DNA of 59,548 nucleotides from Verrucomicrobiia bacterium (GCA_049511095.1 JBEKYJ010000001.1:1-59548); one strand, 5' to 3'. Numbered from the stretch's first letter, positions 54,483 through 55,781 are shown. Translations and numbers: made by a program. The notes: generated by a model from the sequence alone, not told the origin.

Positions 54483-54569
54483 GCCCGGGTGGCGAAATGG
54501 CAGACGCACGGGACTTAAAATCCCGAGGTGGGTTATACCACCGTGTGGGTTCGAATCCCTCCCCGGGCA
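54483..54569 (+). tRNA. tRNA-Leu (anticodon TAA), CCA not encoded
   Basis: Acceptor GCCCGGG/CCCGGGC, anticodon stem CGGGA/TCCCG with loop CTTAAAA, long variable arm AGGTGGGTTATACCACCGT, T-arm GTGGG-TTCGAAT-CCCTC, discriminator A. Confidence 0.9.
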
Positions 54570-54579
54570 TTCATTCTCG
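54518..54579 (+). repeat. Direct repeat copy 1 (attL-like): 3' 52 nt of tRNA-Leu(UAA) plus 10 nt of flank
   Basis: The 62-nt string AAATCCCGAGGTGGGTTATACCACCGTGTGGGTTCGAATCCCTCCCCGGGCATTCATTCTCG is identical to 55720..55781 (aligned by hand). Confidence 0.9.
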
Positions 54580-55719
54580 CAAACAAGGCGCTCATCATTG
54601 GCGTTGCGAGAGCTCGCAGCTCATGTCACGAGTGTTTTCACCAGCACCCTGCCCAGTGGCGCGAATTCCAGCAGACACGGACACGCACACAGTAGCCGTC
54701 CCTCGCGGTACGGTGGACGGGGCGGGCGGACTGTTCGGCTTCGCCTGCCCTGTCCCGGTCAATGTACTCACCAAAGCGAAGGGGGGTTGGGCAATTTGAT
54801 GCCAGATTGTTGGGCGATGTCGTCCATCTTCGCCTTGATAGAATTGTAGTCTCCATGATTCCGCATCATTGCCCATTGAGCTACTAGTTCCTTGTATTCC
54901 CGATCCGTAATCTGAGGAGCCAACGCATTCAGCTGTTGGTTGAATAATACGTTCAATTTATGGTCAGCCGAAACCCCCGTCAGAGAGATGAATGCCGCAA
55001 TACAGAATAGAACAGCAAGAACCTGTCCTATTCGTATCCCAATTCTGGCTCGCCTCTCCAATCGCCCAACTACTCCCAGCAGGCGTTCCTTTTCTTTCTC
55101 TAAACCTTCTCTCGTCTCTGGAAGCGGAGCATCCGGCGACGCCTTCTTGGCAATCTGGGGAGCCGCGGTCAAGAACCCGATACTACAGCCGATACTGACT
55201 GATGTTACGAGCGACAGCAACATGATCGAAGACTGATTACGATCACCCCGTGCAGCTGAGGCATAGATGGAATCAACGAACCCCATGTAGACATTCGTGC
55301 CGAACCAGTTCAAAGCATGTCCCATAATTCCCAACAACGGCTGGATAAACACAATGACTATAATCGAAGCGACAACGCTATAGAGGATGGCCTTCCTTGC
55401 ATCGGAATCGGCAATCATAATTGAGCCTCGCCGTCTACTACGTCCAGAAGCATGAGTTGATTATGCCAAACCGTTGCTGAGGGCACAAAACAAAACTGGG
55501 GCCGGTCATGGCCGTTTTATCGGCGTTTCTATTTCGGCTCGACTGTCACCGTTCTTGGCGGTAGAATTCCCAAGTACAGCAGTCATCGATTGCACCGCCA
55601 TCAGTGGAATAACTGCTCGGTTCCGCGCTCCCAGATAGAGTAGAGCAATACTGTATAATAGAGAGTAGAGTAGTACTGCTCTGTACTGGGAGCACTTGAG
55701 AATTGTCCCTTAGAGGGTT
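54580..55719. mobile_element. Integrase-less mini-island or decayed integrative element bracketed by tRNA-derived direct repeats
   Basis: 1140 bp lie between the two perfect 62-bp repeats. Most of it is AT-richer than the flanks: hand-counted 60-nt lines give about 42-55% G+C, against about 60-70% in sampled flank lines. It holds a single credible gene (54768..55418). No recombinase-like translation appears in any frame I read. Confidence 0.6.
54768..55418 (-). CDS. Hypothetical 3-TM membrane protein (island cargo)
   Basis: 216 aa, with GAGG 8 nt upstream of the ATG. Hydrophobic segments are AILYSVVASIIVIVFIQPLLGIMG, SIMLLSLVTSVSIGCSIGFLTAA and IGQVLAVLFCIAAFISLTGV. The C-terminal ~65 aa are soluble and helical. 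I recognise no family. Confidence 0.6.
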   Translation of the reverse strand: MIADSDARKAILYSVVASIIVIVFIQPLLGIMGHALNWFGTNVYMGFVDSIYASAARGDRNQSSIMLLSLVTSVSIGCSIGFLTAAPQIAKKASPDAPLPETREGLEKEKERLLGVVGRLERRARIGIRIGQVLAVLFCIAAFISLTGVSADHKLNVLFNQQLNALAPQITDREYKELVAQWAMMRNHGDYNSIKAKMDDIAQQSGIKLPNPPSLW

Positions 55720-55781
55720 AAATCCCGAGGTGGGTTATACCACCGTGTGGGTTCGAATCCCTCCCCGGGCATTCATTCTCG
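55720..55781 (+). repeat. Direct repeat copy 2 (attR-like): displaced 3' fragment of tRNA-Leu(UAA)
   Basis: Identical to 54518..54579. It lacks the tRNA 5' half, so it is not a functional tRNA. Confidence 0.9.

Follow-up and report, generated by a model that had tools for sequence, protein, structure and literature searches.

How does a stretch of DNA that encodes no recombinase come to lie between two copies of a tRNA 3' half, in the manner of an integrated mobile element? We address this question at one locus of Verrucomicrobiia bacterium (GCA_049511095.1 JBEKYJ010000001.1:1-59548), a stretch of 59,548 nucleotides that we call the window. A tRNA-Leu(UAA) gene is followed there by a perfect 62-nt repeat of its own 3' part, and the two copies bracket an island of 1140 bp that carries a single gene, for a membrane protein. 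Two relatives have the same tRNA gene without the island. We lean towards reading the island as an insertion made by a site-specific integrase, now reduced to an integrase-less deletion derivative of a tRNA-targeting element.

A perfect repeat of the tRNA 3' half brackets the island

The locus comprises an intact tRNA gene, two repeat copies named attL and attR, a 188-bp and a 301-bp arm on either side of one open reading frame (ORF), and the mutM gene downstream. Its features, in window coordinates and with GC denoting G+C fraction and GC3 that of third codon positions, are:

54483..54569, plus strand: tRNA-Leu(UAA), intact (Rfam RF00005, 58.8 bits, full model 1-71)
54518..54579, plus strand: attL copy of the 62-nt repeat, from the third anticodon base to the tRNA 3' end, plus TTCATTCTCG
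54580..54767, no strand: tRNA-side non-coding arm, 188 bp, GC 0.63 (0.628)
54768..55418, minus strand: cargo gene, 216 aa, three hydrophobic helices, GC 0.495, GC3 0.55
55419..55719, no strand: mutM-side non-coding arm, 301 bp, GC 0.495
55720..55781, plus strand: attR copy of the 62-nt repeat, the tRNA 3' half without the 5' half; no tRNA called
55811..56542, plus strand: mutM/fpg, formamidopyrimidine-DNA glycosylase (Pfam PF01149, PF06831, PF06827)

The repeat is exact and confined to this locus. A repeat search aligned 54518-54579 with 55720-55781 at 62 of 62 positions and a spacing of 1202, and each copy holds the last 52 nt of tRNA-Leu followed by the 10 nt beyond it (TTCATTCTCG). When the window was searched for the 62-mer with three mismatches allowed, exactly two copies were returned, and none of 100 shuffles gave a match. 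No other long repeat in the 59.5-kb window is perfect; the remaining repeat families are TPR repeats. ARAGORN (54482..54570, tRNA-Leu(taa)) and Rfam both called a full tRNA-Leu at attL only. The Rfam placement agrees with the tRNA start given in a preliminary description of the locus, and that description's 62-bp repeat, which begins in the anticodon loop and ends 10 nt beyond the tRNA, was reproduced at both coordinates with 100% identity. Identity segments that begin in the anticodon loop and reach the tRNA 3' end, or slightly beyond, are classical for tyrosine integrases that target tRNA genes, as reported by Reiter et al. (1989) and Williams (2002).

The same site is empty in two relatives

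Relatives of the window show the tRNA/mutM junction as it looks without the island. We searched for the tRNA 3'-half pattern in a set of one genome per species and in metagenome contigs. The genome set returned a single record, a 430-kb contig from an uncultured Verrucomicrobiae metagenome-assembled genome (L016). BLAST aligned its positions 1-1140 to window 56859-55720 at 90% and its positions 1080-2278 to window 54578-53430 at 84%, so that tRNA-Leu leads directly into mutM, with just one copy of the 62-mer region and without the 1140 bp. The metagenome contigs gave one match, a more distant relative (L020; 75-85% identity) in which the site is likewise empty. The tRNA-Leu gene is identical in all three sequences. 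In the window mutM probably starts at the GTG at 55811 (M-PELPEV), and both relatives have this GTG too, separated from the tRNA by a spacer of 39 nt. Relative to the window, L016 has 7 differing positions in this 39-nt spacer and L020 has 10. From these two empty sites we conclude that the 1140-bp segment is a lineage-specific insertion at the tRNA/mutM junction. The preliminary description had predicted just such a site, with mutM directly after tRNA-Leu, and its reading of the repeats as an attachment-site footprint gains support from the empty sites together with the foreign composition and the classic extent of the repeat.

The identity of the two copies dates the event to well after the separation of these lineages. 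We took about 72 freely drifting sites in the two copies and half of the L016 spacer divergence. On this basis, repeats as old as the split from L016 should differ at about 6.5 positions; they differ at 0 (P about 0.002). The insertion, or the last homogenisation of its repeats, is thus much younger than that split. The preliminary description had seen a tension between perfect repeats and a decayed island. This tension is weak, because the lack of differences shows a recent duplication and one deletion can remove an integrase.

The island is compositionally mosaic and contains no recombinase

The ORF and the mutM-side arm are foreign in composition. Both have a GC of 0.495, against 0.60-0.62 in the flanks and 0.628 in the tRNA-side arm, and the GC3 of the ORF is 0.55 against 0.74-0.82 in the surrounding host genes. 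The earlier account of 1140 bp that are mostly AT-richer than their surroundings therefore holds. Such a mosaic, host-like in the tRNA-side arm and low in GC across the ORF and the other arm, is more easily reconciled with a truncated or composite element than with a homogeneous unit.

Each arm has structure of its own. In the tRNA-side arm, a small inverted repeat (TCTCGCAA...TTGCGAGA) spans the edge of the 62-nt repeat, and a 14-bp GC-rich hairpin lies immediately 3' of the ORF stop. The mutM-side arm contains the 9-mer AGAGTAGAG twice, 25 bp apart (55637-55645 and 55662-55670); the 9-mer is absent elsewhere in the window, and the pair is enclosed by an 8-bp inverted repeat, GCTCCCAG/CTGGGAGC (55627-55634 and 55686-55693; z -2.96). 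Judged by this arrangement, the 9-mer pair and the inverted repeat are plausible candidates for arm-type or operator sites, bound by protein.

No trace of a recombination gene accompanies these features. Pfam found no recombinase domain in the ORF, and no recombinase domain was detected in any frame of either arm at E<=10; six-frame pieces of both arms gave no Pfam domain of any kind at the same threshold. The single 216-aa ORF is the whole coding content, as the preliminary description had it: one membrane protein and no recombinase. The rest of the window is core genome (rpoB/C, a ribosomal-protein operon, secY and others) and contains no unexplained ORF of integrase size.

The cargo gene belongs to a large unnamed family

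The cargo protein has three hydrophobic helices by hydropathy and many distant relatives. A word-indexed search of 5.8 billion proteins matched the ORF to itself only. An exhaustive HMMER search with the protein recovered 768 cluster representatives at E<=1e-3 and 297 at E<=1e-10; the matches listed are mostly 170-250 aa long, and about half of them align with nearly the full query in one stretch. An alignment of 39 members shows a conserved N-terminal helix, the motif Y-x-G-x-x-D-x-I-Y-x-N-A-A-L-G-x-R-N and a C-terminal domain with DLQLNTSF...LAP...W, and the cargo protein retains every nearly invariant residue. With this alignment as input, AlphaFold2 modelled the protein as all-helical with a mean pLDDT of 92. 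The ORF had no match in Pfam, PHROGs or PADLOC, and neither the protein nor its 38 aligned relatives had a consistent match in Pfam, PHROGs, PADLOC and NCBIfam; a Foldseek search with the model returned nothing from the PDB and BFVD libraries at E<=0.001. The retained residues and the size of the family indicate an intact gene from a genuine, though unnamed, family, a large group of about 200-aa membrane proteins with three helices.

Homologues occur in settings typical of genes on the move. On a 126-kb contig (L017; JGI 3300034158, Ga0370507_0000018), of which we fetched the stretch 1-16666, a homologue lies within a run of about 27 small ORFs on the same strand, separated by some 20 conserved intergenic repeats. 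When folded as the bottom strand, these repeats form long, imperfectly paired hairpins with GCTAAC/GTTGGC at their ends (z -2.7). By these hairpins and this layout, the run is an integron-type cassette array, with the cargo homologue as a single-gene cassette; another cassette of the array encodes a CdiI_3 immunity protein, and no integrase was seen in the fetched stretch. Elsewhere, a homologue in L032 (5816-6822) neighbours a PDDEXK/REase-like gene and is enclosed by 118-nt direct repeats at a distance of 889 nt; another, in Flavobacterium (L018), adjoins a TIR-domain gene in a stretch of small ORFs between which 74-nt elements recur; a third adjoins a 1497-aa caspase/NB-ARC/TPR/FGE-sulfatase protein (L033, 796-6630); and a fourth stands alone in a low-GC patch between core genes (L019). 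Scans for tRNA genes near the homologue found none at the three loci covered, L017-L019. These contexts mark the cargo as a typical horizontally shuffled accessory gene, often carried as a single-gene cassette in conflict-type neighbourhoods. By analogy with such neighbours, one may guess at a role in immunity or defence.

Independent assemblies carry the same arrangement

The occupied locus recurs in assemblies of separate samples. An exact-protein look-up of the cargo ORF and two neighbouring genes led to ENA, JGI and Logan contigs that had been assembled from different samples, and the same-species contigs are collinear with the window and 99.9-100% identical to it. One of them (L001; 13.9 kb, ERZ27250022) spans both repeat copies, while contigs from different samples cross attR (L002/L010, L003, L009 and L012) or attL (L004 and L005). 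Samples with this population include ERZ27249763 and ERZ27250022, JGI 3300009621, 3300017941, 3300017998 and 3300038415, and SRR7027834 and SRR12951262. The preliminary description had raised the possibility that the repeat is an assembly artefact. Several contigs do break at or within the repeat, but attL or attR junctions recur in several independent assemblies from ENA, JGI and Logan, and both the window and L001 cross both copies; we put the chance of an artefact at next to nothing and discard this explanation.

Where some contigs end is of interest in its own right. Two sets, L002/L010 (ERZ27249763) and L003 (JGI 3300009621), run from mutM through attR and the island to the full attL repeat and end exactly at 54518. 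A contig that passes the repeat twice implies an assembly graph with k above 62. An end at the repeat edge may be a fork in that graph, at which, in some reads, a sequence different from the tRNA 5' half leads into the repeat and the left end of the island; such a sequence could stem from a circular junction, from a second copy in tandem or from an accreted element. Several details speak against a fork: L004 starts inside attR, at a depth of 51 nt, instead of at the repeat edge; both L001 and the window continue across the two copies; and L002/L010 and L003 also break at their other ends, in a TPR-repeat gene. These two edge-ending assemblies are the sole hint of active trans-mobilisation. Every contig of this species that crosses a junction carries the island, in practically the same sequence, and thus there is no sign of ongoing turnover.

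Searches for a helper integrase, a parent element and excised forms

We built four 102-nt junction sequences, attL, attR, attB and attP, where attB is TGGCAGACGCACGGGACTTA followed by the 62-mer and AATGGCGGTGTCGCAGTCCC, and attP is GAATTGTCCCTTAGAGGGTT followed by the 62-mer and CAAACAAGGCGCTCATCATT. The exact same-species attB had 0 matches in metagenome and genome contigs, a weak result in that the metagenome set lacks the JGI contigs known to be occupied. Protein look-ups for an empty site in the same species, using mutM variants and the neighbours of 340 aa and 146 aa, led only to occupied or uninformative contigs. The circular attP junction was not found in the collections searched, where data are thin.

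The search then extends to possible partners of the island. For the cognate integrases that the preliminary description had proposed to find through the att core, the outcome was negative: genome, metagenome and viral collections yielded no integrase or element sharing the core, and the two same-core matches, one from a genome and one from a metagenome, are both empty sites. Viral contigs had no match to the att core. Phage and plasmid collections had none to the island DNA or, by tblastn, to a member of the cargo protein family. The clade is sparsely sampled, with one genome only in the species-representative set, and the JGI island contigs are absent from the metagenomes that can be searched as DNA; these negatives are accordingly weak.

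Origin of the island

The insertion was probably made by an integrase, and the island is best regarded as a derivative of a tRNA-targeting element that has since lost its integrase by deletion, much like a cis-mobilizable element (CIME). A mobile element whose attP matched the 3' half of tRNA-Leu(UAA) would have entered the tRNA-Leu/mutM junction by site-specific recombination of the tyrosine-integrase type, after the split from the nearest sampled relatives. Integration would have regenerated the tRNA at attL and left its 3' half at attR. The integrase gene, on this account once inside the element, would have been deleted later, so that both att copies, the two arms and one intact foreign membrane-protein gene remained. 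The island would be immobile alone and could be excised or carried only through an integrase supplied by a related incoming element. CIMEs have lost the genes for integration and transfer and kept attL and attR (PMC5704250), and degenerate remnants flanked by partial tRNAs are common in tRNA-linked islands (bioRxiv 10.1101/2020.12.28.424599). The preliminary description had offered a choice between a decayed island and a small element mobilised in trans. The literature treats the two as one continuum, under the name CIME (PMC5704250); at this locus the second option gained no direct support, as no attB, circle or cognate integrase was found.

Several observations weigh against a deletion derivative. 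The 489 bp of non-coding DNA contain no integrase pseudogene or other gene fragment, so that "decay" would require one clean deletion. The layout, one intact gene with about 550 bp of att-type DNA and a 9-mer pair, would also suit a designed minimal element. Two independent assemblies end at the outer edge of attL, as a fork from an alternative junction would make them do. The last 10 nt of the identity block are spacer sequence specific to this lineage (TTCATTCTCG, against TTCATACTCA in L016 and TCTATTCTCG in L020); their identity in both copies implies either a donor attP from the same lineage or homogenisation of the copies after insertion. Finally, searches of genome, metagenome, viral, phage and plasmid collections, in which the clade is very thinly sampled, turned up no full-length element related to the island.

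A rival idea is that the island is a genuine minimal non-autonomous element, an attP and one gene on a 1202-bp circle, moved by an integrase encoded elsewhere in the genome or on a co-resident element. We consider this unlikely, although it accounts for much: the missing integrase remnant, the intact gene with all residues conserved in its family, the perfect att copies, the 9-mer pair that sits arm-type-like within an inverted repeat of one arm, the ends at 54518 that a circular or tandem junction fork would produce, and the presence of the family in single-gene cassettes elsewhere, between attC-like hairpins in L017 and 118-nt repeats in L032. It sits poorly with the failure to see a same-species attB or attP when all informative same-species contigs are occupied, with the lack of any integrase or att-core element in genome, metagenome and viral collections, with the lack of a second example that has the same arms or of an examined homologue (L017-L019) next to a tRNA, and with the L004 end away from the repeat edge and the further breaks in the edge-ending contigs. 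A bolder form, which we regard as more doubtful still, makes the 1202-bp unit a working "tRNA-site gene cassette", a gene plus an attP of about 550 bp, that an integrase encoded elsewhere would move in and out of tRNA-Leu(UAA). It would be the tyrosine-integrase analogue of integron cassettes, with cargo from a family that is integron-borne in other phyla, and the breaks at the attL edge would then reflect circular or tandem junction molecules in the samples. Comparably improbable, in our estimate, is an origin with no dedicated integrase, by RecA-dependent homologous recombination of circular or linear DNA carrying the lineage's own 62-bp segment. The lineage-specific 10 nt within the identity block are most easily explained by a same-species donor, and another small low-GC insertion in the window (49266-51286) has no flanking repeats, so other routes of entry exist. 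Yet a repeat from the anticodon loop to the 3' end is the standard signature of tRNA-targeting integrases, 62 bp come close to the minimum for efficient RecA recombination, and the first occupied locus would still need an origin. The route has two variants, a Campbell-type single crossover and the import of the whole occupied locus from a conspecific.

Two further explanations have less to recommend them. If the island were ancestral, L016 and L020 would have lost it independently by recombination between the repeats, which would leave one copy, as both of them have. We hold this to be very unlikely: two losses are needed, the insert is still foreign in GC and GC3, and repeat copies of that age should differ at about 6.5 positions, not at 0. 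Insertion of an integron gene cassette at a secondary site in the anticodon loop is hardly credible at all. The L017 homologue between attC-like hairpins points that way, and the island/attR junction GGTTAAAT fits a GTTRRRY core; against it, 62 bp of target are duplicated, which integron insertion does not produce, the 188 bp 3' of the ORF are not attC-like, and there are no paired RYYYAAC/GTTRRRY sites. The weak folding of 54570-54775 (z -0.27 and -0.84 on either strand), together with the 62-bp duplication, led us to reject it. An insertion sequence or transposon was rejected as well: there is no transposase domain, the island ends lack terminal inverted repeats, and the duplication is 62 bp long.

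Other variation in the window

A second low-GC insertion lies a few kilobases upstream of the tRNA gene. It occupies 49266-51286 (2021 bp, GC about 0.49), exactly between the stop codon of an SDR gene and the ATG with which the following gene begins, a position at which L016 has only "AC", and it has no flanking repeats and no tRNA. It carries two ORFs:

50643..51092, minus strand: GNAT acetyltransferase ORF
49659..50546, minus strand: 295-aa ORF without a Pfam match

The gene for a TPR membrane protein next to the tRNA (52901..54322, minus strand) is also variable. The window lacks 63 nt (21 codons, in frame) at 53427/53428 that are present in four same-species contigs (L022, L025, L026 and L028), and L029 shows the same alignment gap. 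Over 53428-54265, L022 and L025 are only 90-93% identical, from which we conclude that at least two haplotypes of the TPR gene co-occur. L022 (45.5 kb; ERZ27250022 k141_662788, from the same sample as L001) matches window 46451-53427 at 100% identity. Beyond the TPR gene, at its positions 7875-12441, unrelated genes (for a PEP-CTERM protein and a glycosyltransferase) take the place of tRNA-Leu, the island and mutM, with no tRNA in the next 4.5 kb; L022 is either a structural variant or a chimera at paralogous TPR genes. In L020 (1140-1166, against window 52896-54424) the whole 473-aa TPR gene is missing between the 146-aa gene and tRNA-Leu.

Significance and comparison with known systems

The island is a clean, well-bounded and datable recent acquisition at a tRNA gene, in a poorly sampled Verrucomicrobiae lineage of peat or soil. 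It also draws notice to a sizeable unnamed family of small membrane proteins, found in single-gene cassettes and next to defence-type genes. Should circles or empty sites bear out mobility, the unit would be among the smallest integrase-dependent mobile units known, and it would offer a simple system in which to test trans-mobilisation at such att sites.

Dispensing with a recombinase of one's own has precedents. Integrative mobile elements exploiting Xer (IMEX) integrate through the host XerCD at dif, have no recombinase and are flanked by duplicated recombination sites. The island shares the duplicated flanking sites and the lack of a recombinase; it differs in target, since an IMEX uses dif and a housekeeping recombinase, and we know of no host housekeeping recombinase that acts at tRNA sites. 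With classical tRNA islands, prophages and integrative plasmids of the pSAM2 type it has in common the extent and position of the repeat, the regenerated tRNA, the empty sites and the foreign composition, but it is one to two orders of magnitude smaller and has no integrase, excisionase, replication or transfer gene. Integron gene cassettes likewise combine one gene, in a unit of promoter-less size, with a recombination site, and in L017 they carry the same protein family; the island differs in having no attC, a 62-bp target duplication and a tRNA as target instead of attI.

The closest counterparts are remnants of integrated elements. Like tycheposon-type remnants of Prochlorococcus, the island would be a leftover of a tRNA-targeted element, flanked by a partial tRNA and carrying niche- or defence-type cargo (bioRxiv 10.1101/2020.12.28.424599). 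Those remnants usually have fragmented integrases, diffuse borders and a place in multi-element islands, whereas here the borders are perfect, no integrase fragment is present and the island stands alone, without the tyrosine recombinase and replication module of a tycheposon. CIMEs have been described in Firmicutes and the host here is an uncultured member of the Verrucomicrobiae; the island is also far smaller than typical CIMEs, at 1.14 kb and one gene, and no parental integrative and conjugative element, integrative and mobilizable element or accretion partner is known for it. It shares with CIMEs the retained cargo, the lack of genes for integration or transfer, and a position at the 3' end of a tRNA gene between attL and attR. 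An integrated element without an integrase of its own is already a known kind.

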